64,000 bases of DNA from Marsupella aquatica. Its lineage: Eukaryota; Plantae; Marchantiophyta. Shown in pieces: positions 3,337 to 39,639 of this stretch; the first letter of the stretch is position 1; each line of letters starts with the position of its first letter. The translations under genes were made by a program, and so were the position numbers. The notes beneath the pieces are model-generated. The model saw nothing but the letters and a program-made list of their open reading frames with translations. It was not told the origin of the DNA and ran no database searches. Location: NCBI GenBank assembly GCA_973895155.1, contig OZ316899.1, positions 14,759,934-14,823,933 on the forward strand, written 5' to 3'.

Positions 3337-6300
3337 GATGATCAGCAATTCTCCCAGCTAATTCAACCTGGGGAAGCAAACAATGGTAGGATTAATTTGA
3401 CAAAATAATGAATTTGATCTGATTCCTCCCGCAGGAAACAGATGGGAGCAAGTATTGGCTACGCCAAATATGAAATTAAAAGATTTACAACTTTGATCTT
3501 CTCCGTAAAGATTCTGCTTTCTGCTAAACCACACAACAGATACGACGGGCGCATGGAACTCCTACGTCAAGCTTCAGCAGTCCGGACTTCTGGTTAGTAA
3601 CCCTGGCTTCTTTTCTACCAAGTTGTAAGGAAATGCACAAGAACTGCAAGGTACACGCATTGGACACCTCCTAAGAGCAATGTTCACTAGATCTGTACTA
3701 GACAACATCTACGAGCTTCCCCGCTGTTCCCCTGGTTCTCACATTGAGTTGCTAATAATGGCCTTAGGACAACCAGGCAACAGATATTGGATCACCACAG
3801 GATTTAGGTCTATTTGCCTCATGAAGTATACAATTAGAAACTATCAGCGATAGACCGTTCCTGAAAGATTATGGGGGTGCGCTATAGCTTTCGTACATCT
3901 CACTGCTTCACAACCTTACATGTTTACGTACGGTACCAGCAATGGACCCAAAGATTCTCTGACAGAATGTAATTCGACACCTATTCTCCCTATCCCTGCT
4001 ACACGCTTCTTAAAAGTCTCCAAAAACAACTCCGACTCGTACATAGACTTGGTAACACTAAGCCGAAACAAGTGAGCATCATATCTATCGCGGAGAATAA
4101 CAGTTCATTAGACCAACTTCAAGGGAGTTATTCCCAAAGGAAAATGACCAAACGATCGTTGTCGAACCAAGATAGGCTGGTGACAATGCCCCTCTAATAC
4201 ATACATGAGCATTGACAGCCCTGAACACATTATACAACAGGTCGTCTTTCCTTATCTCTCTTCACAGAGCGCTGTTTGTGACGAAGGGAGTTAATTAGCT
4301 TTTGAAGGACAGTAACTCCAACAATCAAGTGTAATGCGCCAGACAAGTCAGGCTCGGAGTCAGAGCTAGCTTTAGTTTGATAAGATACTGAAAACGTAAG
4401 GCTCATCAAAAATACATATTCGAGCAACTATTGGTGAGGCGGAGATGTTGGCGGGAGTCAAAAAATAGCGTTCCATAGTAGACTCCATCGTAGACATCGA
4501 CGAATGCAGCTTTAACAAAAGACAATAGCTTACACAACATGTCATAATGAAAATATACTCATTCTTCCGCTGCGTTCTTCCAGAAACATCAGACAATGAT
4601 CTCTGCGTCCCTCCTCGATTTCGTCTCAAGAAAACGGCAAGTAGGTCGCTACTTGCAAAGTGCTTAACACTTGTCTTTTTCTATCGCCAAAATGGATGTC
4701 CTAAAGAATGACCTGCCCCTCGACGGGTTTTAGTCCCGACTCTCCTCACTCGACAAAATGGGGCCTAATCCACACCATTTCTGTTAGAATCGTACACAGG
4801 TATAACGCCCCAATTCATACAACCTTGCGCCGCACTAAAAGGCGTTCGGGTAGCTGCACACCGAAGTACTCCACTCTACTCTGCCAAACATCTAGACTAG
4901 GCCATGTGGAGCGCATAACAGTTTAGGTTCGTTCTCTTATGGAAAGAAACGAGGAAGCGGGCAGGGAGGAATACTTGCTGGCGAGGGCATAACTTTTATC
5001 GAGTGGGACAAAAACTAATGTTAGCCACTCTATAGCCAAGTCAAACTATCACTTGCTATATGGCGAATCTTAGGGCCGTCTTGCATGTGACAAGTCCTTT
5101 GTGTTCCGGCCCTAAACTGAACCCGTGGCATTTGTAAATGCAGCAATAGGCTGGCAGTAGTGACGGCCACTTTAGAGGATATGCAAGGGCAAGGGCCAAA
5201 AAATTTCCCGAGGTCCCAAACTTTGAACTGCAAATAAAACAAAATCGCATCTGATCCTGCCCTGTACAATTTGCGGTGCCAAAGACAAAGAAGTAAATGC
5301 GATAGGGTAAGCACGGCACACGTAAGCTCTTCTTGATTGTATTTTTCTGACATCGGTGGGCTGCTAAGGGTTGCTTTTTTCAGGACTCTTGCACATGCAA
5401 GGCAGCCCTTAGTTTCAGTCTTCCTAGTTCATTTTTGTTTTGTTATTATTTTTATTTTTATTTGGCCTATGAGGGCTGTCTTCTTTGTTATCCCATCAGT
5501 TTTGAATTTATCTTAGACCCCCTATATGTTCTTTGTTATTTCAAAATACTTTGTTTTTCTTTTTTGCACTTGTACTCCTTTCCACAATTCTTATATAATT
5601 TTTCCCTTCAAAATAATCTTGAAGTGAAATAATTGTTACCTTTTTTTACTAACCTGTCCCCCACAATGGCTGAAATTGCTAAGTACTCCCCCATTCTATT
5701 TTAATTGCTTCCTTGTCCCCCATTTCGTATGTTGGGTTTACTTAACCACAGGGGCTGACCCAAGGTCGGCTCGCATTGGTCGATTTCCACGTGGTGCAAT
5801 TGGATGCGCTTCACCCCGGTCCCAAAACTGTAACTGGGCTCTTCCCTCCCCGGGGGCACTCCCATGCAACCTTTGCTGCCAGGCCCGGCCGCTCCCCTAT
5901 CGCATCTCACGCCCTCCCGTAAGCCCTTGGCTGCCAGGCGCGGCCCTGCCCTGCCCTTGCCAATCACCAATTGCTCTCGCCCCCCCACTGCCAGCCAAAA
6001 CCCTCCCAGGGCCGACGATCCTCCTCGCCCCAAAGACCAACCCTTTTGCCAGGCCCAGGCCCGATGACCACTTTAGGCTCGCTCGGACAGCCTTTGCGTA
6101 CAGGCCCGTTCTTTCCCCCAAAAACAGTCAAATGTTTGTACATTTGAATGTGTAAACAGCCGACGACAGATAGTTGACAACAACAGACGTGGAAGGGTGA
6201 GGGCGATGGGCAACTGAACGCGGATGTCAGTGTCAGGAGGTGCAGCAATGTTGGTTTAGGCAAGGACAAGTGTGAAACGAGACGCACAGAGTTTGTGAAT

Positions 6301-6881
6301 CGTGACTCCCATGCAAATTCATTTTTCCCCGAAAAAACTCACCTGAATGTTGCCACATTTGAGCACTGTATTTCTGCGATTTCAGTCTGTAGGATCCTCA
6401 AACTGAGTTGAGGAAAGGGCGTTAGTGGGAGGGCGAGGGCAGGGGTGAAGTTATGCACGAAGGCTGGCTAGGCAAAGGACATGGCGGTCAAGCTTACCAG
6501 CCTCGTGCAAGCTTTCTTGATCTGCATTTGGGCCACCCTGAGAGTGCTTAGCACATTGTTCATGTGATCTTGAATCTTGTTGACCATGCTCAAGACTATC
6601 TGCACCGCTGTTTACAGTCATTTCATTCAAGTAGACCTGCAATCTACAACCATGAACCAAGTGCTCCAGACTTCCCGTCAGACACATTGGGTGAGCACCC
6701 GGCTGAGCAAACCCGAGAGCAGACCAATAGTAATATGCTTTCAACAACAATGAAGGTGGAGTCAATGAGGGCTGAACCAGGGACAATCGAGTATCTCCAT
6801 GGTTCACACTTGGACTCAGGTTTTAGGATGGCAAAAGAAATTGGCAAAGGGCAAGCATAGGTCCAGAATGTTCCTTGCCCC

Positions 6882-8755
6882 TATCGTGCGCATACACATT
6901 GCTACACAACACATTGAAGCATAGTCACAATCCAACATTTCAAACATAAGAAAATGGAGTCCAAATGGAACCCATGTCCACACATGTCCAAAACCCACAA
7001 TCGCCCCCCTAGCTGGGAGTAAGGTCCCCTAACTCTAGCTAGCCATGAGTTCTACAAGGTTGATATACACCTTTTTAGGTGTGAAGATCAGGAGGTTGGG
7101 TGCAAGTGAGCCCCATTGATCACCTACCTGCAATCCATATCTTCCAAGTAAACACAAGTGATAACTAGTTGGCTTCACCGACATTGAGGACACAACCATG
7201 ATCCACTAGAAATCACCTGCAATGGTGGTGTCAAACACAACATGTGCCCTCCTCTAGAACATTGATCACAAATCAACATAGTAGCTGCTCCCTGAGTAGA
7301 TCCGCACAACATACACTTCAAGCCGGCACAAACATGTGCCAAGCTTGGATCCACTATACCATCAATGTTTGGAAGATGACATAGTGCACAATTGTGCACA
7401 TGATCCTTCCAAACCATATCATCGCTTCCCTCTAAGATTAGGACACCAGAAGGCACACACAAAATGGTTTGACCTATAGTCACATCAAGGGTTGTGGGTG
7501 TTGTCTGCTACAAATAAACATAATTGTTAGGATGAATTCTTCTAATCCTCATGCAACAACCTCCTCCACGAATAGTAACATACCACAAAGTATTGCAATG
7601 TTGGGCAATACCAAGGTTGTCAAAGGCCATGGGCATAACTCTCTCAAAAACTTGTGCCCTCTTTGAACAAACCTGGACCCAAACAGCTAGATCATCCAAA
7701 TCCACAACAATTGCAACATCACAACAAATAGCCATTGGCAAATCTGGCTCTCTACCATAGAGCAAAAAGTAAGGTGAGAAGGATGCAAGTGATGCTTGCC
7801 AACTGAAACGGTAGCCCATAGCTAACCAAGGTAGTTGGAGATCCCAATCTCCCAAATGACCAACCTAAAAAACCATACTTGCACAATCCTCTCTTCATAG
7901 TTTGTATAACTCTCTCAGCCAATCCCTCTGCCTCAAGATGATCTTGAGAAGTAGTACGATGATCAATCAAAACTTGCTCACACAAACTCTCAAATTCTCC
8001 ATGGCATTTTGTGCCCTGATCAGTCAACACCTCAGTTGGTGCTCCAAAATGACTGAGTCCATGATCCAAAAATGTGGCAGCAACTCCTTCACTAGCTTTA
8101 TCTGACAACGCCACTAGCTCAATCCACTTGGATAAGTGCTCCACCATGACCAAAACATACCAACTATGTCGTTGGGTAAGGGGCAATGGACCAGCAAAAT
8201 CTAAATTCCATTGATATCCCAAACCCATGATTAGCAACAGATGCAACTAGGGAGTGGGAGCATTGAACGATGCCCGCACTCAATCACAAACCACACACTT
8301 AGCTATCAATTGTTGGACATCAATGTGCATACCACGCCACCAATACTGTGTCTACAATAAGCTATAAGTGCGCTTCACACCAAAGTGACCCAACTCCTTG
8401 TGCGCATGTCACACCGAATGTACTCGTTGTGATGGTTTTGGTACAACCAACACCTTACCATCATGTAGTACCCTCAAAAGATGGTTTCCTTCCCATCAAA
8501 ACCTCTTGGCTTGTTATAGAACCCTATCCCGCTCCTTAGCATCACCATTGCCACCAATGGAGCGGCCACGCAGATATTCCAACACTCTCACATCGTTGTG
8601 AATATCTTGTTGCCCAAAAACTACATCACCAACATCCATATGAAGACTCGTCATCTACTCCATCCAATGAAGTAGAGTCCACAGATCCACTACATGTTGG
8701 CACCCAACAAAGGAAGACAGATGCATGTCATCTTGACACCATCTCCTTATCTATC
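6882..8755 (-). mobile_element. 3' part of a degraded PHD-bearing Ty3/gypsy element (copy C, oldest of the nest)
   Basis: Integrase fragments (WNLDFAGPLPLT, LTDQG, GLAER), PHD finger CMLC..CDQC..H..C..CPQC, PPT (tcgcccccct 7001-7010 on +) followed by a single ~119-bp B-type terminal segment 6882-7000. Confidence 0.85.
7175..8755 (-). pseudogene. Integrase + PHD finger of copy C, fragmented
   Basis: ORF pieces 7175-7483, 7508-7855 and 7752-8246 align by eye to the 17912-20301 protein; stops and frameshifts present. Confidence 0.85.
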
Positions 8756-9339
8756 TGTCGTGCGGACACACATCCATACACAACTCACATTGCAGCACAC
8801 CATGTAAACAAGAAAAAGATAATCACATGACACACAACACATGTACGCCAAAATCCATGACAAATCTTTTGCAAAACGGAACCCCGCCGCAAGGTATCAC
8901 TAAGTCGAGCCAAACTCACCCGCTAGCCATGCGGGACTCCAAGTCTATACACATAGCAAAATCCTGCTAATGTTGCTCTACATGCCAACCGTCATACACT
9001 CTCTCTCTCTCTCTCACACCATAGCCACATTTACATGAGCTCTACTAGTGCCGAGAGGCTCAACTTGGAAGAATGAGGAGCTAATCCTCCATTCCCCAAG
9101 GCACAAAGACATGGTAACCTGCGTGAAGAGGTCACCCCTAACAGGTGACCTGCTATACCAAGTCATCCTCCCAAACTCATAACACATGTGCAACCAACAA
9201 AGTTGCAACCCAAATGCAACATGGGGTGACAACTGTCATATGGACACACATCCCTACACAACTCACATCGCGGCACACCATGTAAACAAGAAGAAGATAA
9301 TCACACGACACACAATACATGTACGCCAAAATCCATAAC
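8756..9339 (-). repeat. B-A-B terminal structure of copy B (B2 8756-8861, A 8862-9231, B1 9234-9339)
   Basis: Two ~106-bp direct repeats flank a 370-bp segment; junction gaca-ac-tgtc at 9228-9237; PPT gccccct at 9341-9347. Confidence 0.85.
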
Positions 9340-11098
9340 TGCCCCCTAGCTGGTGGTTAGGTCCCGCTAACTACAACTAGCCCTAAAACTAAAAGGGAGT
9401 ATACACCGTTTGGGTGCACAGATCAAGAGGTCGGGTGCAAAGGAGCCCCATCGTTAATTGCCTGCCTGCAATCTATACTACCTAATAAGTTTTATGCTAA
9501 CCTAATAAGTTTTATGCTAAGTTTTATGCCAATCTTTATCTACGATTGGGACACAACCACCATCCTTCAGGGATTGAATCAAGAGGTGGCGTCAAGCACG
9601 CCAAGTGTCAACCTCTTGAGCAACCATCACAAATCAACATGGTTGCAGCTCCTCGGGCGGATCCACACAATATACACCATAAGCCTGTAGGTATCACTGC
9701 TAGACTAGGATCTATGCTATCATCAATGTTTGGAAGGTGACAAGGTGCACAGTTGCGCACATGATCCTTCCAAACCATATCATCACGACCTTCTAAAACC
9801 AAAATGTCTGATGACAAAACCTTCTGCACTCGCAGAATAGTACGTCCGGCAATGACATCCAAGGTGGTAGGTGTTGTCTATTGCAGATATACAGTCTCCA
9901 GAATGAAATCACTTGATGCTAGGGCGATATCCTCCTCCCCGAATAGTGGCATACCTCAGAGTATCCTGATGTTGCGCAATAGCTAAGTTCTCAAACGCCA
10001 TGGGCATCACTCTCCAAAACAAGTCTGCCCATTGAGAACAAACTTGCATCCACATGTCAGGGTCATCCAACTACAACACCTCACCGGCCTCCCATTGAAT
10101 GGCTGCTGGTAAACTGTCTCCCTACCATAGAGCAGCAAATATGGGGAAAAGGATGCAAGAGATGCTTGCCTATATACTGAAGCAATATCCCATTGCCAAC
10201 TAGGGTAGTTGGATATCCCAATATATCATTCACGTGACCCTTTTGCAAGCCATACTTCCACAATCCTCTCTTCACTATCTAGAAAACTCTCTCTACCAAT
10301 CCATCTGCCTCTGGATGATCCCTAGACGTTGTACGGTGATCAATCAATGCTTGATCACACAAGGCCTGAAAATCTCCATGAAACTCAGTCCCCTGGTTAG
10401 TCGAAACCTCAGCAAGAGCACCAAAATGGCTCAATACACGGTCCAAAAAGGCATAGGCAACTCCTTCGCTACCTTTATCTGGCAATGCAACCAACTCAAT
10501 TCATTTAGAAAAGAGCTCCACCATCACTAAGGCATAACGGTTGTGACATCTAGTTAGTGGTAAGGGTCCAGCAAAATCTAAACTCCAACAATATCCCAAG
10601 CCTCATGATCGGCAAGGGATGCAGCTGCGGGGTAGGAGCATTAAATGATGCTCTCACTCTGTCACACATAGTACACCACCACACAAATTGTTGCACCTTA
10701 GCATGCATTCCATGCCACCAATATTGGGTCTGGAGTAAGTTGTATGTCCGCTTCACTCCAAAATGTCCAAGCTCTTCATGAGCATGTTGCACCAATTGTG
10801 CATGTTGGGATAAAGGAGGTACCAACCGCACCTTGGCATCATCCCAAACTCTCAACAAGTGAGATCCTTCCCATCTGAACCTCTTAGGTCGTTGTAGGAT
10901 TTGATCTCTCTCCTTGGCAGTTACCATGCCTGGCATGCTGCCCATGCGCAAATACATCACAACATCTGCATCATCATGAATATCATGTCCAATAGACTCC
11001 TCACTAGAAATCTATGGATCCATAAAGTCTGCATTGGGCCTCTCCAATGATGCCACTACACCAAGACCATCCATACTCTGCAACAAGCACAAATAAGC

Positions 11099-11462
11099 TG
11101 TCATGACCATACGTAGCTTGCTAGACTATGTAGTGTGCTAGCGGAGTCCATACCTTAGATGGGCCGTAGTGCCTAGTTAAGAGTCTGGTTCCATGGTAGA
11201 GGGTTAGAGGGGGTGCCCTGTTGAGGGTGACTCCTCTAGTAGGACCCGCCCTCAGAGTTGGAGGGTATAGTGTGGAGAGGCTCAAAGGACGGTTAGTTCT
11301 TTGAGTTGAGCCTTTGGCGTTGGGAGAGCCTTGGTAGTGAGTGGAGCTCCTTGGCTATGGTGTCCCGTTAGCTTCAACCTAGATTTTCCATTGCGGAGTG
11401 GGTTTGGCTTGACTGTGTGTGTTCTTACGTGTTTTATGACAGTATGTCTTTCACGGATTTCA
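11099..11462 (+). repeat. Terminal repeat A1 (364 bp)
   Basis: Direct repeat of 20586-20949, about 8 substitutions by eye. Confidence 0.95.
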
Positions 11463-11473
11463 CTCAAAGAACT
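11462..11473 (+). promoter_or_regulatory. Putative self-priming primer binding site (Tf1-like)
   Basis: ACTCAAAGAACT directly after A1 is the exact reverse complement of AGTTCTTTGAGT at 11295-11306, which lies ~25 nt downstream of a TATA-like gtatag; no TGG tRNA-type PBS. Confidence 0.7.
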
Positions 11474-13117
11474 CGTAGTGATCGATTGTAACTTCGATCA
11501 GAGATCAGTAGGATCTGGTAGGTTGTTTGCTAGCATCAGCCGTGGATACATTGTGGTTCGTGGATCTGGTGCGTGTATGGGTGGGGAAGAAGCGCGTTGC
11601 TGAGAGCTTTCCAACGCACTAAAGATCGCCCGGTTTGGTCGAGCGAGTTGGAAGTAATCAAAGAATGAAGAATTTGGTTCGTGTTCAACGGTTTTTCAGA
11701 TTTGGAAAGCTTGAGAGCGGAAGCTCTGTTGGAAGTCATCCAGATCGGGTGAGAGGTTTCTGATGTTGATCCTTGTTTGATACGCAACATCAATTCAATC
11801 GTGCAGAACTATTTAGCTATGGTGTGTGGAGCGAATTGTTGTTTAGAGAGGGACCGTTGCAGATTTCTGTATTGATGAATCTATGCGGAAGCACTGTCGG
11901 ATTTCAGTGCGTTGGTAGTAGATCTGGATGACAGAGTTGCAGATCTGTGTTGTGTGATCAGTGGCGCAGAAGCGCTGTCCTAGTTGTGGCTCATAGATCA
12001 TGAGCGAAAGCGCTGTGCAACTTCGGAAATGTATAGGCCAAAATGTTGTCCAATTTTTAGCTCGAAGTACAGACCTCAGTTGTAGTTGATTTCTTGTGGA
12101 GAGATAGCTATGGTGGCCAATTGAATTCTGGTCCAGATAGATTAATTTTTTGTCAAGGATTTCACGGAGTAATCAGAGGTCAAAATTTTGCGGACTAGCT
12201 CAAGGCCTCGCTATGGTGGATAGCGAACCTGCATGCTGGGGGCGCTTTGCTCGTAGCGGAGCAAGTCGGGGCGAAAGGGGCGTGTCTCGAGCATTTCTCG
12301 GCGTTTTGAGGCTTCGAGGCAACTCGTGGTAGCTCGGGGCGAGTGGGCGTGAGAGGCGGAGAAAAGGAGCAAGGGAGCAAGCAAGCAAGCTTGCTTGGGC
12401 GTGAGATAGTTTTGCAGATTTGTGAGTAGTTATGTGAGTATTGTGTTGCATAATTGGTCACCCATCTTTGCACTATTCTGCTTGCAAGACGCTTAATTGG
12501 TAGATTCTGAATTTTGCTAGTGTATAGATTGCCTTAGAGGAATTGGTGTAATATTTGGACGTTTTCCCCCACATATGCATTGTTTTAGGTTGTGTTAGGA
12601 CCCGTTTTGGGATTCCTAGCGGATGGTGGTGGATAGCGTTTCCATGCAGGTGACATTATCAAATGTTGGGAGTGCGAGGAGCACGTCATAGACTACTAGC
12701 GGAGTAGCTACATTGCGTTAGGATTGTGTGGTGTGTTTTGTGGATTCAGGGGGCGCCACGGTTGGTGGATTGTGTTACCTTGATTTCCATTTTGTATTTC
12801 ATTTGCGATTGGAGGGTTGTCGTTGGACTTCCTGTGTTTGGATCCCCTCCATTGCTGCTTCTTGCTTGCGCGCCCATTGTTAGGGCTGACGCTGATTTCC
12901 GGAGTAGTTTTACTCTAGTGTGCTGCCTGTAGTGAGGTTGGAGTGATGACCAGTCAGACTACCTATGTTTCTCTCACGGTGAGACTGGAGTAATGACCAG
13001 TAGACCATGGGAGGTTGCTTGTGGTGATGACGGGTTAGGTTGCCCACACCCATGTAGCTATTAGGGCTAGAGTAATACGGCAACATTGACGTTACTTGGT
13101 TAATTAGTGGTGGTGAT

Positions 13118-14941
13118 TTGGTGGTGGTGCTGTTGCAGCTTGTCATCACGGAGCAGTTTGGTGGTCCTGTTGGGGACCTTGGTGCTGACACTGGTGGTTT
13201 TACACGGAGTGGATTGAGGTATCAACTACCTTTTCCACTACCGTTAGTTGATGAGGACGAGGACGAGGGTGTTCCAGACATCAAGTCTTCAGTTGTATTG
13301 TCCAGTATAGCAACCCCATTGATTTGGGATATGGACAGGATGTATGGGGGCATGAAGGGCCCACGACGTTACTCAGGGGCAGTGGGCACCATTGAGTTGG
13401 AGGACTTCATTCAGGAGTTTGATACATGGTGTGATATGCAGATGTTGCGTAATGCCACGTTATTTACACCTTTCTTGGCATGGAAGGGGTTGTTTCAACA
13501 CTTGGAGGGGCCTCCCATGGATGATTATCATGAGTTCCGGAAGGACCATGCTATTGAGATTGAGGCATGGAGACAACATTGGTCTCCAGCCTATGTGTCT
13601 ATCACTCAGGGTGGTGTTGGTACTAGTGGAGGCACTAGTGGAGGTGCTAGTGGAGGCACCAGTGGAGACACTAGTGGAGGCACTAGCGCTCCACCTTCGT
13701 TCAGCCCAGTTACAGAGTTCTTCAAGAGGTTGAAGAAGAACTACCAGGGGGTGAAGACAGAGAAGTTGAGGAGTCTTCAGGAGTTTGAGAGAAAGACTGG
13801 TGAGAGTCTTTGTGAGGCATACACTTGTATGCGGCGTTTGATTTCAGTTACTCAGGGTGTGACTGAGGCACAGGCTGTCCAGTTTTGGTATGGGATTTTG
13901 GACAGAGAGTTGCGGAGGAGGGTACGTGATGCTACTCTGATGAGTGATGATCCACCCACGTTGTCCCGTGTGTTTGCTTTGGCTAAGAAGATTGAGCTTA
14001 ACATGGTGGAGGAGAGGGTAGTGACATCTGCATTCAGTAGGAATATAGCTACTACTTCTCGAGTTCAGCCAGCCACTTTACAATCTCGTAGTAGTGGTGG
14101 TGGTGGTAGTAGTGGGAGTCGTGGAGGTTCAGCACGACCTCAGTCAGGTTCTAGAGGGACGAGTGTGCAGAGACCGTTGGCTTCATATGCTGCCCAGTAG
14201 CAAGGACCAGTGTGTTGGACATGTGGAGGTGATCATGTTCGGAGGGTTTGTCCCCAGGAGAGTGGGGGACGGAGTTTAGAGGATGGATCTCAGTCAGCCC
14301 AGGTGCAGTGTGATCATTGTGGTCGAGCAGGTCATCCTCGAGACCGTTGTTTTGACCTATACCTAGAGTTGAGGATGGGTGGTCAAGGTCGTGGTGGAGC
14401 ACCTCAGAGAGGCCGATGTGGTGGAGCTGGTAGAGGTGGTAGGGGTGGTAGAGGTCCACCAGCAGTTGGAGCACCTATAGTGGCTGCCCCTCCCCCTACA
14501 ACAGAGGCTGCTATGGCGGCTAGGATTGAGCAATTGGAGCAGAGACTTGCTACTATGGCTGGTATTCCACCTCGAGCAGGTTCGGGAGTAGGGGCTTCCA
14601 CGTCTTATGGGGGGGATGATCTCTCTTATATGGCAAGTGCGGCACAAGTTGAGGCATCAGTTGCATTGACGAGAGGTGCAACTAGAGCTTTAGAGCCACG
14701 TGGTGCCACTGTGGAGTTGGACCCACAGAAGGGTGAGGCTGGGAGGCAGGCTAGGCTTCCCCAGTCATTCTTGTTGTCAGAGGTGCTTAGGACTCCATCC
14801 ATGGTTCCTATGAGACCTGTTGAGCCGATAGTGGATACAAGGGCATCTACATCACGTGTAGTAGACACAGATGTAGCCTCTAGTGCAGTGTTTGCAGATG
14901 GCAATCTCAGTATTAGGATCCTCATTGTTTTCTGCAACTGA
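13118..14941 (+). pseudogene. gag: Gag with two zinc knuckles (in-frame TAG at 14198-14200)
   Basis: FTRSG N-terminal motif, retrotransposon gag-like helical region, CWTCGGDHVRRVC and CDHCGRAGHPRDRC, RGG-rich tail. Confidence 0.8.
13619..13688 (+). repeat. 12-bp in-frame tandem repeat (GGTS)n within gag
   Basis: ggcactagtgga-like unit repeated about 5-6 times. Confidence 0.8.
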
Positions 14942-15169
14942 ATTGATGGCCTCAGGAGTTGACATGACTCGTGTATTTCAACTAGCTGGCACGTTGTGTG
15001 AACGTGGGAGTGTTGCTGCTACGAGTGCTGAGGTGTGTGAGGGTGTTGTTGTTGAGCAACCCTTAGTGTCAGATGTTGCATTAAGTACCGATGCTACTTG
15101 GCAGGCGGCAGCGGCGAGGATGGATGCATTACCAGCCCGACCAGCCATTGATCATGAGAGACTTACACC

Positions 15170-15600
15170 TGGAGTATGTATGTTGGACAACCGAACTGGT
15201 GTCTTTCAATTGGTGAGTCCTTCAGGACAGGTGTATAGACCAGAGAGGGTGTTGTTGGACTCTGGTGCCCAACCCTTGATGTTGGGGAAGGCAACTTGTA
15301 TTGGTTTGGGTATTTGGAGGTCAGAGTTGGAGCCATGCCCATTCCAGATTCAGACATCACTTGGAGGAGCCAGTGATAGGTCTCACTTCATGACATGGGA
15401 GAGGGTGTCAGTGCAGATGAGGCCAGATCATGCGACTGATAGCTCTACATTACGAGTGATTGCTGTGGTGACATCAGCAGAGTCATATGATGTACTAGTT
15501 GGAGGTGCAGTGTTGTACCCAATGGGTTTTCAGATGGACTATTGGACTGAGACAGCAGCCTTTAGACCTGGTTGGCAGTCTGGTGATGGACGTTTGAGCC
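15170..15600 (+). pseudogene. Aspartic protease domain
   Basis: VLLDSGAQ catalytic motif and downstream YDVLVGGAVL motif in ORF 14883-16256; domain limits approximate. Confidence 0.85.
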
Positions 15601-15983
15601 AGGTGCCTGTGAGGTTTATTTGTGGGGTTAGACCAGGAGGGACTTCCCCAGAGGTATTGGCATCAGTTGTTGGTTTTAGTGGAGTGGTCACTTGGCCAGG
15701 GGATTTGTTGGAGGGTAACCTCTTAACCGTGGATTCTCTAGTCTATGAGGAGGTAGAGGAGGTCTTTAGTTTGGCGGCAGTGGTACCCTCCTTGTTGGAT
15801 GTTCCACTTTGGAGTTCAGGTGGAGTGTTGAGGCAGAAGGTTGATCATTTGATATCACAAGCTTGGAGTACACCCTTTGTACCTGTGGAGGTAGAGACTC
15901 CAAGACGAGCTCCTATTGGTGGTCCAGTGGGGTTGTCTCCTTTGGATACAACACCCATTGTTTGGGAGTATCCACCAGAGGGT

Positions 15984-16900
15984 ATTTGTGTGTTGGACCT
16001 CTTTGGTGGGATTAGCACTGGTTTGGCTGTAGTGTTGCAGGCCGGGATACCCGTGAGGAAGTATTTGTATGTGGAGAGAGATGAGACCGCGAGGAGGGTT
16101 TCATCACGACATCTTGCATTGTTGTCACAGTCCACAATTTGGGGGTATCAACGGAGTTTGCCATCAGACATTTCATTGTTGGGGGCGCAAGACCTTGAGA
16201 GGGTTGGCCCTATTGATTTGGTGATTGCTAGATGGCCATGTCAGGGACATACTTAGGCTGGTCATGGTGGAGGGTTACATGACCCTCGTTCTCATTTGTT
16301 TTGGGAGATGTTGCAGGTGTTGCGTCATCTTCAAGTGCATCAGGCACGTGCTCCAGCTTACATTCTGGAGAATGTCCCTTTGTTGGGTGATACTAGATCT
16401 CATGTGATCACGGCTGCACATGAGGTAGGTCATGGATTGGACCAGCTGTTTTGTTGGATGCAGCGAGGGTGGGCTCGCGTGCACATCGTCCACGGTTGTG
16501 GTGGACAAACTTGTTACCCAAGGAGCTTTTGAGGTGCGCCTATGATGCAATCCAACGGCCTCTATCTCTCACCGTGGATAGTATTTTGGATGGTGGACGA
16601 CATTCTCAGGTGGTGAGAGCAGTGGATAGGTCACCCATGGCAATAGTGAACCTTGTGGGGCAGCCTAGAATGGCTTTGCCTACATTTGTGAGTTTTCCCT
16701 CGTCACATGCCTATGGGGATGGTGGTCCTGGGCTTGTATGGGATTCTCATGTGCGCCAGTTGGTGGAGCCCAACGCTGATGAGAGAGAGCGTGCTATGGG
16801 GTTTCCTACCGGTGTGACATTAGTCTCTTTAGTTTCAGAGGCATCACGTTGCCAGGTGTTGGGTCAGGCTATGGACCTAAACTGTTTGACGTGGATTGTG
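15984..16900 (+). pseudogene. C5 cytosine DNA methyltransferase domain (DNMT3-like) inside pol; one TAG and one frameshift
   Basis: Motif I VLDLFGGISTG, II YVERD, IV DLVIARWPCQG, VI ILENV, VIII AHRPRLWWTNL, IX ERERAMGFP, X LGQAM, in canonical order. Confidence 0.93.
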
Positions 16901-17199
16901 AGCCTTGCGATGGCCGAGCAGCGGAGACTTAGGACCATGTCTGTGGTTACTTCACCCGTGGTGATGAGCTCGTTGCCTTCTGGGAAGGTAGAGGCATCGG
17001 CTGGGGGCAAGGAGAGTGGTAGTTTGCATCCTTGGAGTACATGGGATGTGATGCATGGGCATGTAGAGTTGGTGGCCCATGCTGGTGGAGGAGTTGTTTG
17101 CTCAAATGATGGTGTAAAGGAGCATGTGCCATCGTTTGAGGAGGTGGCATAGCAACCAATGGCGTCGTCCTCTTCCTCTAGTGTACCGGTAGAGGAGAC

Positions 17200-20100
17200 T
17201 TGGGAGCCATCACTTGGACCCAAGCTGACAGGAGGTGAACAACGATGGTTGACACAATTCCTACATGCTTATAGGAGTTGTTTTGCCTTTAGCATGAAGG
17301 AGTTGGGTGCTTTGGTTGGACCTGGTATACGGATTGATTTGGCTAGTGATACGCCAATCCCTACAGATATAGTGATATGGAGAGGGACTTGATTCGGAGT
17401 AAGATGCTGGACCTTTTGGAGGCTGGATTAGTGGAGTTGTCGCATGGGGAGTATGTGTCAGCCACTGTCATGCCTGTCAAAAAGGATGTGCATGGCAACT
17501 ACATAGAGAGGCGGATGTGTGGAGATTACCGTCCTATCAATTGGCAGACAAAGGCCGATAGGTATGCCATGCCCACACCTGAGGAGATCTTTGATGTGGT
17601 GGGACATGCAAGGATTTTCAGTACTTTGGATCTTTGGGCAGGATACCATCAGTTGCCGATTTGAGTGAGTGACAAGGCCAAGACAACATTTTGGGGAGTC
17701 AACTCATATGGCAAGGATTGTTTGTATCAGTGGCGATTCTTACCCTTTGGGTTGAAGAATGCACCTGCCAAGTTTCAGAGAGTGATGGACAGGATCCTAG
17801 CAGGATTGGATTTTGTTTGGTGTTACATTGATGATATCTTGGTGTTCAGTGATACTGTGGAGGAGCACCAACAACATTTGCAGATTGTGTTTGAGCGATT
17901 GAAAACAACATTTGCAGATTGTGTTTGAGCGATTGAAAGCTCATGGTCTACGGTTACATCCAGGAAAGTGTAGGTTCTTCCATGAGGATGTTGAGTACTT
18001 GGGTCATGTGATCTACCCAAGTGGTTTGGGGGTCCAACGGGCAAAGGTTGAGGCTATTGCACGTATCCCTCGGCCGACAGATGTGAGTAGAGTTCGGGCA
18101 TTCATGAGATTGGCAAACTACTATCGGCGATATGTGAAGGGATTTAGTGTTGTAGCAAAGCCTTTGAACAAGTTGTTGAAGTCTGATCAGGAGTGGCAGT
18201 GGGGAGATGACCAGGAGAGAGCTTTTATGGAGCTCAAGGCCAAGTTGGTGTCTGCGCCTATCTTGAGGAGACCTATCAGGGGTCGCCCATTTCAACTGCA
18301 CACTGATTGGAGTATGTTGGGGATTGGAGCGGTGTTGACACAACATGATGATGAGAACAAGGAGTTTGTGGTGGCCTATGCAAGTTGTTCAAACAATGTA
18401 GCAGAATCAAGCTATGGTTCGTACGAGGGAGAGTGCTTGGCAGCAATGTGGGTTGTGGCACACTTCAGGTGTTACTTGTTTGGCACAGATTTTACCCTTG
18501 TTACTGATCACCAACCACTCAAGTGGTTGATGGAGTCTGATAAGCTTACAGGAAAGCTTGCACGGTGGGCTCTTATCTTACAGGAGTATGACTTTCAGGT
18601 GGTACATAGACCTAGAGTTACCAACCTTGATGCTGATGGGTTGAGTAGGAACCCATGTCCTAGTCAAGAGGATGATACTGGAGCTAGATGGCATGGAGAG
18701 GTTGATGAGGAGATGGTGCCAGGATGGCATGCATCTGCCTTTTTGTGTTTGTTGGGTGTGAACTCTAGTAAGGAGGATCACCTTACACCTTCCTATAGTC
18801 AGAGGGTAGATGGCCAGCCTGCAGATCCGGAGGTTGGAGATGGTGCTACAGATCAGCGTGATATTCATGATGATGCGTTGGTGTTAGAGTTCCTACGGAC
18901 CAGTAGGGTGCCAGGCATAGTGAGTGCCAAGGAGCGAGACCGTGTTCTCCAATGTGCTAGGAGGTACCGATTGGAGGGAACACATGTTCTCCGTGTGTGG
19001 GAGGATGGTAGAGTACGAGCGGTACCCCATATAGCTCAGAGAGAGCGCATTGTGCGACATGCTCATGAGGAGTTGGGACATTTTGGAGTAAAGCGTACGT
19101 ATAACTTACTTCTTGGTCAATATTGGTGGCGTGGCATGCACACTCAGGTGAAACAGTTGGTGTCACATTGTATGGTTTGCAATCGGGTGAGGGCATCTTT
19201 CAATGCCCCTACGCCACAGTTACACCCCTTACCTATTATGGGGTTGGGTTACTGTTGGAGTTTGGACTTTGCAGGACCATTACCGTTAACTAGGCGGCAT
19301 CATCGGTATGTGTTGGTGATGGTGGAGCACTTTTCTAAGTGGATTGAGTTGGTGGCATTGCCTGACAAGGCAAGTGAGGGAACGGCGTATGCATTTCTTG
19401 ATAGAGTGCTTAGTCATTTTGGTGCACTAGCGGAGGTGTTGACCGACCAGGGTATGGAGTTTCAGGGTGAGTTTCAGGTCTTGTGTGACAAGGCGTTGAT
19501 TGATCACCGGACCACATCTCAAGATCATCCAGAGGCGGATGGTTTGGCAGAGCGTGTTGTTTAGACAATGAAGAGGGGATTGCGCAAGTATGGCCTACAG
19601 AAGGGGCATCTTGGAGATTGGGACATTCAGTTGCCATGGTTAGCCATGGGTATAGGTTCAGTCATCAATCATCCTTGGCTTCCTTCTCACCTTATTTTCT
19701 ATTGTACGGCCGAGACCCAGACTTGCCCACAGCAATTCGTCAAGATTCTAGTGAGGTGGTGAACCTTGATGACCCAGAGGTGTGGCTGAGGGTGTGTTCT
19801 CAAAGGGCACAGCTCTTTCAGAGAGTTATGCCAACAGCGTTTGAGAACCTTGCCATTGCTCAACATAGAGATACGTTGCGTTATGCAACCATCCGGGGTG
19901 GAGGTTATCGACCATCCATTCGTAGGTTCCATGTGGGGGACTATGTCTATTTGCAGCAGACTGCACCGACAACATTGGATGTGACGGCAGGACGCACTAT
20001 CTTATGTGTGAGAGAGGTGTTGGCTTATGGAGTTCTCATGTTGGAGGGTCGTGATGGTGTTGTTTGGAAGGACCATGTGCGTAATTGTGCGCCATGTCAC

Positions 20101-20301
20101 CTCCCAAACGTGGATGGTACAGTGGACCCCAACTTTATAGTGATACATGTTAGCTTGAGGTGCATGTTGTGTGGGTCTGCTAGTGAAGCAGCCCATATGT
20201 TGGTTTGTGATAGGTGTTCTAGGGGTTGGCATATGTCATGCTTAACTCCACCTGTTGATGTTGTGCCTATTGGACGGTGGGTTTGTCCTTGGTGTACTTA
20301 G
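17200..20301 (+). pseudogene. pol: RT - RNase H - DDE integrase - PHD finger
   Basis: LPFGLKNAP, YIDD; TDWS..GECLAA..TDHQPL; HHCC (HEELGH..CMVC); WSLDFAGP, LTDQG, GLAER; C4HC3 PHD at 20161-20295. Confidence 0.95.
17871..17938 (+). repeat. 34-bp perfect tandem duplication that frameshifts RT
   Basis: acaacatttgcagattgtgtttgagcgattgaaa occurs twice in a row. Confidence 0.95.
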
Positions 20302-20462
20302 GAGGTGGATGACTTGATCTTCACATGGTATGGATTGCAGATGGGCAATTAACGATGGGGCAACATAGCACCTGGCCTTTTGATCCGTGCACCCACGAAG
20401 GTGTATAGCATGTAATAGATGGATAGGGCTACCTGGGAGTTAGAGGGACCTAACCGCCAGTT

Positions 20463-20472
20463 AGGGGGGCGA
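20463..20472 (+). promoter_or_regulatory. Polypurine tract upstream of B1
   Basis: aggggggcga; equivalent motif precedes B in copies B and C. Confidence 0.75.
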
Positions 20473-21060
20473 GTTGCGGTACACTGTCTTGTATTTGTGT
20501 ATGCTCTTGTCCATGTTATGCATGTATGTGAGTATGGCATGACCAGCAATGTATGTTGTATGACGATGTGGATTCGCACGACAGCTGTCATGACCATACG
20601 TAGCGTGCTAGACTATGTAGTGTGCTAGCGGAGTCCATACCTTAGATGGGCCGTAGTGCCTAGTTAGGAGTCTGGTTCCATGGTAGAGGGTTAGAGGGGG
20701 TGCCTTGTTGAGGGTGACTCCTCTAGTAGGACCCGCCCTTAGGGTTGGAGGGTATAGTGTGGAGAGACTCAAAGGACGGTTAGTTCTTTGAGTTGAGCCT
20801 TTGGCGTTGGGAGAGCCTTGGTAGTGAGTGGAGCTCCTTGGCTATGGTGTCCCGTTAGCTTCAACCTAGATTCTCCATTGCGGAGTGGGTTTGGCTTGTC
20901 TGTGTGTGTTCTTACGTGTTTTATGACAGTATGTCTTTCACGGATTTCAGTTGCAGTACACTGTCTTGTATTTGTGTATGCTCTTGTCCATGTTATGCAT
21001 GTATGTGAGTATGGCATGACCAACGATGTATGTTGTATGACGATGTAGATTCGCACGACA
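20473..21060 (+). repeat. B1 (20473-20583) - GC - A2 (20586-20949) - B2 (20950-21060)
   Basis: B1 and B2 are 111-bp direct repeats with 4 differences; A2 matches A1; junction palindrome GACAGCTGTC at 20580-20589. Confidence 0.95.
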
Positions 21061-23900
21061 AAGCAGAAGCATGCCAACTTGGCACCATCTCCTCGTCTGC
21101 CTCATCATGCCAACATGCTCCTGTCAAATCCCTCTGGCTTGGGCAGGGATTGCAACTCAATTCATCAGCATCCTGATGTAAGTGACCAGATCTATGCAAG
21201 GCCTCAAAATCATACTCCTCAAGTATGAGTGCCCAACAAGCAAGCTTACCAGTAAGCTTATCTGACTCCATCAACCATTTGAGTGGTTGGTGATCCGTAA
21301 CAAGAGTGAAGGGATTACCAAATAAGTAACATAAAAAATGAGCAATTGCCCACATTGCAGCCAAGCATTCTCCCTCATAGGAGCCATACTTTGATTCTGC
21401 AGTGTTATTCGATTGATTGGCATATGCTACCACAAACTCCCTTCCCTCATCATCCTGCTGAGTGAGCACTGCTCCAAGTTCCAACATGCTCCAATCAGTA
21501 TGCAACCTGAATGGAGCATGTGATAGGGAGCCCCCTGATAGGTCTCCTCAAGATGGGCGTTGATGTGAGCTTCTCCTTCAACTGATGGAAAGCTCTATCC
21601 TGGTCAGCACCCCACTGCCACTCATGGTCCAATCTCATAAGTAACGTCAAAGGTTTTGCAATTGCACTGAATCCTTTCACATAACTTTGGTAAAAGTTTG
21701 CAAGCCCCAAAATGCTTGGACTCTACTCACATCTGTAGGCTGAGGGATGCCAACAATTGCCTCCACCTTTGTCTACTGCACACCCAATCCACCTGGATAA
21801 ATGGTATGCCCTAAATATGCAATCTGGTCATGGAAGAACTTACATTTTCCAGGATGCGACTTCAATCCATGCTCTCTCAGCCGCTCAAACATCTACTGCA
21901 AATGTATAGCATGCTCCTCCACAGTGTCACAATAGACAATAATGTCATCGATATAACATTTGGCAAAATCCAGGTTTGCCAAAATCCGATCCATGACCCT
22001 CTAAAACTCAGCTGGCACATTCTTCAATCCAAACGGTAAGAATAACCACTGATACAACACATCCTTCCCATGAGCATCAATCCCCCAAAATGTTGTCTTT
22101 TGCCTATCACCAATCCTGATAGGCAGCTGGTGATATCCAGCCCTGAGATCCAATGTACTGAACACTCTCGCATGCCCAATTGCATCAAATATTTCCTCCG
22201 GTGTGGGCATGGCATATCTGTCAGACTTAGTCTACCGATTAATTGGACGATAGTCTCCACACATCCTCCTGTCAGTCCAATTGCCATGCATATCCTTCTT
22301 GGTTGGCATCACAGTGGTAGAAGCGTACTCATCAAATGACTTCTCCACAAGTCCTACTACCAACAAATCCTGGCACCTTGCCTAAATCAGTGCCCTCTCC
22401 ATATCTGAACATCGATATGGTCTTCAAAAGATGGGCGCATCAACTGCCAAATCTATCCGGATGCCTGGTCCCTTTAACATGCCCAAATCCTGCATGTTGA
22501 AAGCAAAACAACTTCCATAACTCTGTAGAAACTATCATACACATTGCCTCTCACCTCCAGTGATCTTGGGGCCAATAGTTGGCTCCCAACTGTCAATGGT
22601 AAGCTTGGCAGAAGGTGCAAAGAACGCCAATCGTGGTTGCTATGCTGCAACCTTAGGAGGAGCAATACCATGTTGCTACAAAAAATAAAGCCCACTGGCC
22701 TCTCCACTGACTCCCCACGAAGTCGAGGGATGACAATTTGTGACACTGTCACGTCGTTAGCCTGGGCCTTAACCCGGGCTTCGGCTTAGACAGGCACATC
22801 CTTCGTAAATATGAGGGTTCAGGCAGGGAGGGACGCACGGAATGCACCTAACTCCCGTAAACTAGCGCTAAGTGCGTCTACTATTACTTACGGACACCTC
22901 CTAGGTATGATTTGTGTTCCACCGCCGGAACGTACCTTAGTCAATAGCGGGATCGACCCCGGCTTACGGGCTTTTAAGCCTTTATGTTGTCCGCCTTTGA
23001 TCCGGATTCAATGATATGGGCACTCAACCCGGGCTCACAACCACTTACCCGCAAGCTGCACCCCGTGCATGGCTCAGGTAGTGCGTTCGGCCAAGCGTTG
23101 GCACCCATACACAAGATTCACACATACACACACACAAGCATACAATCTCGATTTACGCAAAGGAAATAATGGGAAAGGATTTTACTACACAGGTGGACAT
23201 ACACGTACACTAAGTTGACCCGAAAGCTCTTGAATGAACAGGTCCAAGGCCGAGGGTGTACACTACAATGGAGCCCGGCTCCGCACTCACCCAACAAGCT
23301 TAGTCCTACCCCCTCCCCTTGGTACTCTTTCACTCACAGAAGTCGGGACTCCCCGCACATACCGCGGATGTCCAACTCTAAGACTAAAAAAACCCCCTGC
23401 CTCTACCGATGAGTGCACTAAATACTAAGGGCTGAGGACCGGAGTGGTCTCAAGCCCAAATATTCACTAACTAAGATCCTAACTAAGCTGGCTGTCAGGC
23501 CGGAAAATGGCTTGTCTTATTAGAAGATTCTAATCTACGCAAGCTGGACAGTATGGCAATGCCGCTTTAACTAGGGCAGGTGCTTGTCCCTATAGCCCGA
23601 TTTAGCTACTCCTAACTCTATTTTAATCCTACTCCGCCGCTAATGTCTGGCACGCTTGCCAGAGCCGCCCGAGTGGGAGCGGCTATCCCGTTGCCTCTTG
23701 ATCCTGTCGGCATCCTGCTTGAGTAGCTGGACCTGATCCAGCAGAGATTTGTTCTCTCGCTTTGCCGCGTCTGTCTCCTCCGCGGTCTCCTGGCATGCCT
23801 CCTCTAGTTGTTGGACGTTGCTCGTCAGCTTCTCCACCAATTGGGCCTGCTTTGTGGCTTCTCCTTGAAGCCGTGCCATCTCTGTCTTCAGGGTGTCTAT

Positions 23901-30700: not shown

Positions 30701-31765
30701 GAGGAATACATCCTCTTGAGCTAAGCTGGGTCTGGGGGTGCCATGGGTTCTCGAGGTTTGCGGGTGTTAGCTCGCTCGCTTGCCAAATCCTGCCGAACAG
30801 CAGCCAAGCCGCGTTCAGTATCCCAAGGGAGCTGGCGCAGGGGAGGCAAGGCCAAATAGGCATGGAGGTTGAGTTCCAAGGGTGCTCGGCCCCTAGACCA
30901 TCAGTGGAGCGAGAACCAAGAGTTGGTTGCTAGAGTCAGGATCATTCTGGTCCCGACGTGTTGTGACAAGCTTAAGGACAAGCTACACTATTTGGGCCAT
31001 GAGCATGTCTAGGGGTCAGGGCGGTCAGTAGGTGATGGATAGGTACGAGGGGGAACCCGGGCCGCGCCCAAGGAAGGAGCTGTTTTGGATGAACAATGGG
31101 CGTGGGTTCTGGTTCCGGCTTATGGCATCGGGAGGACCTATCGCTGACCTATTTACCAATGTCTATTGAGCTTGAGTTAAGATGCTAGACTTGGCAAGTT
31201 CTAGATCCTGAAGGGTTACATACTGAGGTGCTTGGTTGCTTGTGCAGACAGTGAGGACCGTTGAGAGCAGCAAAGAGACAGGACAAAGTAAGAGATAAAA
31301 CTATGGTGTAAACAGCGGTGAGTAAGGGCATCAGGTCTAAGAAACCAAGCAAGGCGGCATGAATTTGTCTAAGTAACAGGGATAGATTGGGAAAGGAAAA
31401 GTAAAAGGGCAGATTGGAAGATCCAAAAGGAGGAAGCAGGAGAAGAAGGTGTGGTGGGCAAGAGCTATTCATGTATGGAACCTGCTAACGGCGCGGGGAA
31501 GGGATGTATGCAAGTCTGCTAAACTTGGCAATCATGGAGTGGTAATTCACGGGATAGGGGCGGAGAGACATTGCTGGCACCACAAAGGAAGGACGGATTG
31601 AGAGGTGAGAAGGAACCCTTTACTTTGAGTACTCTTTGAAATCACGGCTTAAGCAATGGCGCCGATAGGCAAGGATAATGCAGGATATAGCAGGTAGGAC
31701 TCACATAGCTTGACTGCGCACCTTGGCCGGGGGCCCGGGATGCTCATGACCGTCGCCTTTTTTTT

Positions 31766-33636: not shown

Positions 33637-33699
33637 GCTTAGAGAGATTTGGGGGAGACCGGCTTTTAAATGGGTGGGTTGTTGAGGGCTGCCTCCTAG

Positions 33700-36234: not shown

Positions 36235-37345
36235 TGTCACTTGCCTCTCCAACGGTTAATACGTGCAAACCGCACTTTTCTTCGCTTAAACCGTTGGTAT
36301 CGTATTACGGGGTCGTGGAGGGACGCTATTTGGATTCTTTTCACACCAGGATGAGTATTTTGGTTTCCGCTCCCGGAAATGTAGGTTTTGATCAAGTCTA
36401 CCGACTACCCTCACCCCACAGCTTTTGATCAAGTCCTGCCGACTACCCCACTACACCTTCACTCGGAGTCACCCAAAGAGTGCTGTCACCACCCCTACTC
36501 ACAAGGCCGACTCAAACCAAGCAAGTTTCTTCAAATCATAGAACGGGAGAACACAATTCGGAAAGCGAAAAAGGGAGAAGGAACACACAACAAAAGCCCA
36601 TCAAGTCAAATGTACAGATCCATATCTCTTGGGAAAAACGATACACATTGCATGAGTAACCCGGCCTCCTGCCGTCTACTCAACTCCTGCCTCTCCGGAC
36701 AATGAGTATGGCTCCCCCTCACTACTCTGAACACGCTTTCAAACTCCTCAGGCTCCACTCTATCCCTCCTTGCTAACTTCACACTGAGTCCCCCTAACTA
36801 CTTCGGGGCTATCCCCCTAAATACTGAAAAATCACACCAAAGCACCCCTCACAGGGTCACAACGGTGGCGGCTACCCTAGCGGCGCCGCTAAAACCTTGC
36901 ACTAAGAGAAATCCTTAAACTGAAGAGGAGCATGCGGCACACACATGCTGCTAAAACCCTAAACCCAAAACAAGGGGGCCGACGGTGCCTTCGACGGCGC
37001 CCCAACAGTACACGTGAACCCTGAAAGTGAGAGGCACCCCAAAATGGCCGAAACTAGGTGCCCTTCCAAGTGCACACCTGAGCTCACCCCTGGATAGCTC
37101 TTCTTTTCCTGCTTCCGAATCACTAAGTCGCTCCCTCAACGGACTTCAGACGCCTGAGTTATGGCCGTTTCCGTACCGCAAAAACATAAGTTCTCCAGGC
37201 CATAACTTGCTCATCCTGGCTCCGTTTGAGGAGCGCCGCCTCTTGTTGGAATCAGCTCCGCGAGCTCATCCCAACAAGCCCATGAGTGACCCCCCACTAA
37301 AATGTTGGAAATCTGGAGGCCGTACACCCACGTCCGTACGCCTAT

Positions 37346-39202: not shown

Positions 39203-39639
39203 CCATGCATCCCGAAATCAATTTCTCAATCACCAATCCCGTCACCCGTGGCAATGTCAATTCCCTGGCCCGAAACAGCCCCCGTAGCCCGATCACTTAA
39301 ATTCTCTCAATTTCCCGTCACTACTCCGTGCGGCCGCCACTAATGCCTGGAAGAATGACGCCAGCAAGCCCCACTAATCCACCATGAAAGAGAGAGCTTC
39401 AAAAATAATTAGAATCTGGAGAGAGCTTCCGGCAAGAGAGAGAAGAACCCCGTTTTTGCTTTCGGCAATGAGAGGGTCGTGCAAAAGGAAGAGGGAAAGA
39501 AAAAGGAAGGAAAAAAAAAAAAAAATAGAACCGAAAAAACTCCTGGCGCCTTCGCCATGCGCCCCGGCCCATTTCTCGGGCCTTACCCTTGCGTCCTCCT
39601 GCGCGCGGCCCTATGCAGGGCGCGCGGCCATTCCTCCCG

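Follow-up and report, generated by a model that had tools for sequence, protein, structure and literature searches.

Among described retrotransposons, those closest to the element reported here are the Gypsy-borne DNMT3 elements of the alga Klebsormidium nitens, KnitGypsy-Dnmt3 (de Mendoza et al. 2018, PMC5890265), which combine Gypsy domains with an intronless, unrearranged DNMT3-like domain under purifying selection and with repeats in the order A1...B-A2-B, and in which methyltransferase and reverse transcriptase (RT) occupy a single ORF. The KnitGypsy-Dnmt3 domain gave no methylation in yeast, a result that its authors considered inconclusive, and the SymbioDIRS-Dnmt3 domain methylates CG sites de novo in the same host (PMC5890265). 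SymbioDIRS-Dnmt3 and SymbioLINE-Dnmt (PMC5890265), like the EpiLTR and DAM-LTR elements (bioRxiv 10.64898/2026.05.21.726589), are also retrotransposons bearing methyltransferases but belong to other element classes or methyltransferase clades; the EpiLTR enzymes are sister to DNMT4 and are described as distinct from streptophyte Gypsy-DNMT3. An unrearranged DNMT3-type domain, as here, is also found in the host DNMT3 enzymes of non-flowering plants, of which PpDNMT3b makes CG and CHH methylation de novo (PMC6453930).

The element analysed here lies in a 64,000-nucleotide stretch of Marsupella aquatica DNA, referred to below as the window. Its family unites a DNMT3-like domain, set within a Gypsy coding region, with DIRS-like split repeats and with purifying selection and, as KnitGypsy-Dnmt3 shares these traits, the kind of element is already known. 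The window family differs in that its hosts are land plants rather than an alga and in that a conserved stop codon lies between the DNMT and RT; the accessible text of PMC5890265 makes no mention of readthrough, self-priming, an internal att site, a 4-bp duplication or a PHD finger. In the literature covered, where subscription journals are thinly represented, bryophyte or other land-plant members, the readthrough stop, self-priming, the internal site, the circle route and the domain order of the chlorophyte elements are undescribed, although supplements (to PMC12344493 and the 2026 preprint) may hold bryophyte copies under 'streptophytes'. What appears to be new beyond KnitGypsy-Dnmt3 is thus a Gag frame that ends with a DNMT and a stop, a set of repeat signals of circle type and a sister group with the order RNase H–DNMT–integrase. 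The explanation that best accounts for the whole, and to which we give a probability of about 0.55, is that the window holds a decayed copy of a Ty3/gypsy element of mosses and liverworts with a DNMT-terminated Gag frame and a leaky stop, whose enzyme would methylate the element's own cDNA and whose circular form would be opened by integrase. The family extends the known range of DNMT-bearing retrotransposons from algae to land plants, among them the model Marchantia; as host methylation mutants exist there, methylation of its own cDNA by a transposon becomes directly testable; bryophyte genes annotated 'DNA methyltransferase' may be copies of these elements. The features of the copy are as follows.

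11095-11098, plus strand: left copy of the target-site duplication (4 bp, AAGC)
11099-21060, plus strand: whole element, first bases TGTCA, last bases CGACA, AAGC on either side
11099-11462, plus strand: repeat A1, starting TGTCA; predicted part of U3 plus R-U5; TATA-like box at 11266-11269
11295-11305, plus strand: predicted transcript 5' end and 11-nt self-primer, exact complement of 11463-11473
11463-11473, plus strand: predicted primer-binding site (PBS) of self-priming type, without TGG, the 11 bases right after A1
13331-14890, plus strand: gag, with two zinc-knuckle-like motifs (14213-14335), a premature TAG (14198) and a frameshift (near 14890); no Pfam match
15162-15575, plus strand: aspartic protease (PR; LLDSGA); the homologous region of P0055 matches, and P0055 carries PF13650
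15984-16924, plus strand: C5 cytosine methyltransferase domain of DNMT3-like type with motifs I-X in their canonical order; a pseudogene in this copy (deletion, TAG, frameshift)
15990-16010: motif I (VLDLFGG)
16068-16082: motif II
16230-16247: motif IV (RWPCQG)
16365-16376: motif VI (LENV)
16481-16513: motif VIII (AHRPRLWWTNL)
16781-16804: motif IX
16853-16873: motif X
17150-17158, plus strand: conserved in-frame stop in readthrough-type context (TAG CAA CCA), closing the Gag-PR-DNMT frame
17365-18622, plus strand: RT (YIDD at 17824) and RNase H; Pfam RVT_1 and RT_RNaseH
19022-19914, plus strand: DDE integrase (zinc-binding domain, rve core); Pfam Integrase_H2C2 and rve; TAG at 19562 and a frameshift
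20161-20301, plus strand: PHD finger, C-terminal in the integrase frame (PF00628, E 1.1e-9)
20463-20472, plus strand: polypurine tract (PPT), abutting B1, not A2
20473-20583, plus strand: repeat B1, ending in CGACA
20584-20585, plus strand: 2-nt spacer of the CA-NN-TG joint, the predicted unused internal integrase site
20586-20949, plus strand: repeat A2
20950-21060, plus strand: repeat B2, its CGACA end forming the right terminus; the A2/B2 joint is the predicted circle junction
21061-21064, plus strand: right copy of the target-site duplication (AAGC)

The empty site, joining 11094 to 21061 with four letters in common, is seen in two contigs of run X3. TG...CA termini with a short target duplication, together with the order gag-PR-RT-RNase H-integrase and an integrase of the DDE type, place the element in Ty3/gypsy. 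A DIRS/PAT identity was rejected: the rve integrase is present, and a scan of 24 ORFs revealed no tyrosine recombinase. Two full flanking LTRs, as in a canonical LTR element, are not found; the direct repeats are split in the order A1-internal-B1-NN-A2-B2, with 8 differences over 364 nt between A1 and A2 and 4 over 111 nt between B1 and B2. An ordinary LTR pair made up of 11099-11462 and 20586-20949 was rejected, since no target duplication matches that span; one does match 11099-21060. The same plan is seen in a neighbouring element in the window and in L012, L037, L046, L053, L063, L065 and L069 among the metagenome loci described below, the B-NN-A joint recurs in the divergent loci L057 and L058, and the PPT holds the same position in six loci inspected, in L057 and L058 and in two related window elements. 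With such repeats the whole lineage would escape standard LTR finders. Every gene of the window copy is damaged, the RT/RNase H region by frameshifts, one TGA and a 35-bp duplication, and the element is dead. Its gag is 66% identical to that of Marchantia P0011, and the protease piece gives no Pfam match.

The C5-MTase motifs include all those named in the preliminary description, in order from 15990 to 16873, with the catalytic PC dipeptide and the ENV of motif VI; the first half of the domain does share its frame with the protease (LLDSGA, 15252). That description had counted one TAG and one frameshift in this copy. Both exist (TAG at 16254-16256, frameshift near 16427) but further lesions accompany them: seven residues are deleted after motif II and the position directly before the PC dipeptide carries a non-conservative change. 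The Pfam check proposed at that stage gives a match of the N-terminal half, with X at the stop, to PF00145 (DNA_methylase; E 2.8e-8, 34 bits, cut-off 22), and among solved structures the same half is closest to DNMT3B and DNMT3A (E 1.5e-6). The C-terminal half alone has no Pfam match and only weak matches to DNMT3A (E 0.055), and a Pfam scan of the unjoined native ORFs of gag, PR and DNMT is empty. The suggested DNMT3-like identity is upheld by a profile of 12 homologues, which gives DNMT3A 51 bits, a DRM-type enzyme 25, M.HaeIII 23 and DNMT2 22. A Foldseek search with a model, itself weak (pLDDT 52), of the uninterrupted homologue P0003 returns DNMT3A/B at the top (E 1.6e-10). Judged by its sequence, then, the domain is genuine and DNMT3-like, yet a pseudogene in this copy. 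Host DNMT3 enzymes carry DUF3444 (PMC6453930), which the window-family domain lacks, and the Klebsormidium host DNMT3 gene is multi-exonic (PMC5890265), which the window-family domain is not.

The domain is not confined to one copy, an outcome that would have spoken against the preliminary reading. The N-terminal half finds 52 proteins at E<=1e-5, the best of them 70-78% identical, including named proteins from Marchantia polymorpha, Sphagnum and Calypogeia, and the DNMT holds the same place in 78 metagenome loci and in several plant lineages. Among viral contigs the search gave one weak match (34% identity), and the sequencing runs listed include no RNA run carrying the element. For counts of conservation, stop and flanks, loci with <150 aligned DNMT codons and copies >=99% identical were removed, reducing 76 rows to 65 (64 distinct copies and the window). 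Wherever the flank of a distinct locus is long enough, pol domains lie downstream of the DNMT (38 of 38); upstream, PR or gag is present in 45 of 47. Purifying selection, named earlier as a check, is evident in a median DNMT dN/dS of 0.27 for the window against 55 copies, compared with 0.23 for gag, 0.23 for PR, 0.20 for RT and 0.42 for the linker, pairwise values that are non-independent and raised by CpG mutation. L032 gives 0.19 and the pair L057 and L058 0.12; the 0.60 found inside the main clade is expected of decaying copies. Nor have the catalytic residues been lost: the catalytic Cys is retained in 61/61 copies and E, N and V of motif VI in 57/61, 62/62 and 60/61. Arginine losses in motifs VIII and IX are mainly to H, C, Q or stop, the changes that CpG decay produces. 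The DNMT frame is free of stops in 6 of 45 full-length distinct copies.

The earlier placement of the DNMT in pol, between protease and RT, needs partial revision. The order PR-DNMT-RT stands, but the DNMT closes the Gag-PR frame and RT, RNase H, integrase and PHD finger lie beyond a conserved stop, so that the enzyme is not simply inside pol. Homologous proteins terminate about 90-97 residues beyond motif X, which is the position of the window stop. Of 53 loci, 52 have a stop at this codon, as do 44 of 45 distinct copies; the share at other codons does not rise above about 33%. The exact context UAG-CAR-YYA is present in the window copy, the neighbouring element, L032, L070 and all five further divergent loci, and the residues encoded by the context hexamer vary (QP/QL/QS). 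Downstream of it, the frame is open both in the window copy and in the divergent loci. The nonamer is unchanged in copies from four public runs, save for single-contig variants. In the Sphagnum-like majority the context is CAA CCC, one base off the readthrough consensus, and TAA takes the place of TAG in 14 of 45 distinct copies. Among plant viruses, UAG-CAR-YYA defines type I readthrough, as in tobamoviruses, benyviruses and pomoviruses, and the context functions with UAA too (PMC3542737). The window stop is set apart by its location in a retrotransposon, past protease and DNMT; the gammaretrovirus stop falls between gag and protease. By lineage, the distance from DNMT to RT is 459, 501, 573 or 582 nt, all in frame; the DNMT-RT frame is intact in 29 of 42 distinct copies, and we read the other 13 as decayed. 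The stop is therefore likely to be leaky and read through into RT-RNase H-integrase-PHD, with Gag-PR-DNMT as the presumed major product and the downstream domains as a minor one; because the DNMT sits in the Gag-PR frame before this stop, it would be made in capsid-like amounts, in other words in bulk. In P0055, P0093 and P0129 the frame runs on from the DNMT into RT without a stop, which makes the stop a mark of a sub-lineage, and the stop-bearing copies form one group, to which the DNMT tree gives support of 86 and the RT tree 94.

From the domain order, its conservation, the stop and its context, the split repeats, the 4-bp duplications and where the PPT and the complementary 11-mer lie, we infer the following route. 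Transcription would begin within A1, and most ribosomes would halt past the DNMT whilst a minority continued. The protease would free the DNMT within the particle, where self-primed reverse transcription would give a normal cDNA with B-NN-A as its true LTR. Ligation of the cDNA ends would create the A2/B2 joint, and integrase would open the CA-NN-TG of the 5' LTR and so insert A1-internal-B1-NN-A2-B2. The DNMT would meanwhile methylate the long-lived extrachromosomal DNA, such that the new copy arrived pre-marked, either protected or tempered.

The most likely role of the DNMT is to methylate the cDNA of its own element within or close to the particle, a role favoured by retention of the enzyme in cis, by its preserved active site, by the capsid-level amount predicted and by a circular intermediate that would be exposed for long. 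We consider it unlikely that the abundant enzyme acts instead in trans or after integration, entering the nucleus to methylate rivals, the target or older copies, with copy number or competition limited as a result and the PHD finger steering insertion. In favour of such action, capsid-level output would far exceed the need of one cDNA; the window copy is nested in a related element in a window full of repeats; and the best structure-sequence matches of its PHD finger are those of CHD4, PHF12, KDM5 and BHC80, of which the CHD4, KDM5 and BHC80 fingers prefer unmodified H3K4. Options of this sort were listed by de Mendoza et al. (2018, PMC5890265). The benefit of action in trans would, however, be shared with cheaters, yet one lineage after another has kept the domain in cis, and the trees of DNMT and RT are in broad accord; in the sister group, moreover, the DNMT lies in pol, at low stoichiometry.

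The self-primer matches the PBS at 11 of 11 positions in the window and begins 29 nt behind the TATA-like box; of 26 5' repeats, counted with duplicates, 18 match at 8 or more of the 11 homologous positions. In an RNA fold of the predicted 5' end the primer pairs with the PBS, modestly beating shuffles (z -1.8, 8/200). Speaking against self-priming, no compensatory changes are seen in self-primer/PBS pairs among the 5' repeats compared, and immediately upstream of the self-primer a further 10-mer resembling the PBS forms a local inverted repeat (11281-11305) that is near-perfect in Sphagnum-like copies. Priming by tRNA was set aside, ARAGORN having found no tRNA in the whole window and the PBS lacking a TGG start. 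The self-primer of Tf1 is likewise 11 nt long. Tf1/Sushi and Tcn1 gypsy elements also have a PBS complementary to their own predicted 5' end, but they are chromoviruses with ordinary LTR pairs rather than split repeats (PMC6317226), and as that survey, in its accessible text, demanded standard LTR pairs, elements of the present kind would have escaped it.

The positions of the PPT and PBS mark B-NN-A as the LTR copied by reverse transcription. The integrated form would then be a circular permutation of a two-LTR molecule, opened at CA-NN-TG of the 5' LTR, where a staggered cut would leave the two-base overhangs that are usual for integrases. The 4-bp target duplications point to integrase; of nine elements, seven have perfect ones, one has a mismatch and one is unresolved. 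In circles of IS3/IS30 type, abutted ends meet in a palindromic junction that a DDE enzyme opens. A precedent among retroelements is the foamy virus integrase, a DDE enzyme that cleaves two-LTR circle junctions at the palindromic joint of abutted ends, as predicted here; the cut predicted in the window family differs in lying inside the LTR, on an obligatory route, and not at ligated ends (PMC1180852). The model revives the old notion of circles as integration precursors and suggests specifically how a Gypsy element could come by DIRS-like repeats, which have had no explanation. At the A2/B2 joint, L043 and L044 carry a PBS remnant and L037 filler plus PPT-side bases, the termini of all three being precise. 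Forms that end at B1 (A-internal-B) occur in seven loci, against eight (L046 included) with B1-A2; they fit one-LTR circles but can equally have arisen by recombination between B1 and B2 after insertion. L043 itself (6023-13570) has a truncated RNase H, then an inverted piece of A, then R-U5-PBS-B, with exact termini and a CACA duplication, and has the appearance of an aberrant circle that became integrated.

Against the circle model, mirror integrants would be expected as well if a two-LTR circle were symmetric, and none was seen in 21 5' ends. A more far-reaching version of our reading, which we regard as doubtful, would make this a green-plant gypsy lineage with an obligatory circle substrate opened inside the LTR and a DNMT-loaded capsid methylating the cDNA before insertion, CpG methylation of CGACA shielding the earlier-made 3' site; such shielding would account for the recovery of one of the two possible integrants.

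It may also be that the DNMT has been read correctly and the anatomy has not, pol being expressed through reinitiation or a spliced message, and a PAT/Ngaro-like template switch, with no two-LTR circle, copying the split repeats. The lack of mirror integrants is in keeping with this, as are A2/B2 joints that are mostly identical among elements, an ATG 6 nt past the stop in the window copy and the Sphagnum-like clade, and some Marchantia and Sphagnum gene models spliced over the stop. That ATG is, however, missing in L032, L057-59, L066, L070, L077 and the neighbouring element, all of which keep CAR-YYA, whilst the PPT and PBS place B-NN-A as the copied LTR and the 4-bp duplications, with no tyrosine recombinase in the ORFs scanned, favour integrase. 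Such an alternative anatomy is in our view quite unlikely.

Returning to the preferred role, a methylating enzyme might be expected to leave traces in its own element. CpG observed/expected ratios are 0.24-0.69 in DNMT elements and 0.36-0.63 in the non-DNMT elements of the window, overlapping ranges that show no consistent footprint of self-methylation, and no clear signal was seen when CpG, CWG and CCG depletion was examined in the elements. These data, the inactivity of the Klebsormidium domain in yeast and the replacement of the motif IV PC by EC in 56 of 121 distant representatives would suit a DNMT that is mainly a non-catalytic DNA- or RNA-binding module or decoy, shielding for example the internal site or the circle, with methyl transfer incidental. 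The near-invariance of Cys, ENV and motif I in the bryophyte clade and the CG methylation performed by the related SymbioDIRS-Dnmt3 domains make this improbable. That one copy captured a functionless host methyltransferase by chance, an idea to which the damage in every gene of the window copy might lend itself, is refuted by the presence of the same domain at the same place in the 78 loci, across several plant lineages, with dN/dS well below 1, and can be set aside.

Beyond the bryophytes, a full profile search (the profile spans gag and PR too) gives 448 clusters at E<=1e-30. Among the best 150 of these 448, 121 have a long DNMT match, with the DNMT after RNase H or before integrase in 64, after gag/PR or before RT in 16 and alone in 41. 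Named members with the order RNase H-DNMT-integrase are the chlorophytes Hariotina and a 'Chrzof1' model, and those with PR-DNMT-RT are Closterium and bryophytes; a Scenedesmus pol is also among the profile matches. EC for PC, with the Cys kept, is seen in many members of algal type, as in P0055, P0092, P0061 and P0115 and in the 56 representatives. One member, P0062, is a 4231-aa polyprotein (RT-RH-DNMT-IN-PHD) that also contains PF01585 and PF00293, which we take to be G-patch and NUDIX domains.

Trees were built from hand-picked rows, 42 for the DNMT (9 of the 78 loci offered) and 25 for RT (6 of 78), the window row in the DNMT tree being a 166-aa C-terminal piece only. The quick DNMT tree parts the two orders with support 98 and the quick RT tree broadly agrees, P0061 being the exception. 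A large sister group, chlorophytes included, thus appears to have its DNMT between RNase H and integrase. A Klebsormidium fragment covering 46% of columns groups (100) with PR-DNMT and DNMT-RT proteins and falls on the window element's side of the 98 split in this unrooted tree, which has no host outgroup; common ancestry with the Klebsormidium element may be the reason. The shared split repeats, Gypsy domains and purifying selection bear out the connection to Klebsormidium elements drawn in the preliminary description. Candidate donors of the DNMT are a host DNMT3 and a phage enzyme: DNMT3-like phage enzymes score as high as human DNMT3A, three of them reaching 45-56 bits with a query that gives DNMT3A 48, and matches 2 and 3 in the atlas are viral clusters. 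RT of the window copy differs from the Marchantia (P0011/P0027) and Sphagnum-like (L006) copies by about 0.16 changes per site, a small distance for the moss-liverwort split that would reflect either strong constraint or horizontal transfer.

Several other elements share the window. The insertion is hosted by an older relative on the minus strand (22747-21065 and 11094-8755), the neighbouring element mentioned above. It is about 73% identical in DNA and has the same TAG CAA CCA stop (22642), a PHD finger and split repeats, here joined by CA-GT-TG; another sequence, with a TGTCA start at 22748, severs its upstream part. A third relative (8612-6885, minus strand) comprises integrase and PHD finger and seems to end at a single B-like repeat, as in the A-internal-B forms. 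At 59705-62137 lie open frames of 561 and 248 aa, coiled-coil-like and with no convincing Pfam match. A young, ordinary gypsy element without a DNMT (36235-51164, minus strand) encodes an intact 2140-aa polyprotein between LTRs of about 4.1 kb that are 99% identical, with a 5-bp duplication (GGTTA); each LTR contains a 623-aa coiled-coil-rich ORF with no family match (37346-39217 and 48096-49967) and a 47-bp tandem array. Its insertion has apparently split a decayed LINE (31700-35400 and 51236-53000) in which DUF4283, a zinc knuckle, an endonuclease, RT and zf-RVT are recognisable.
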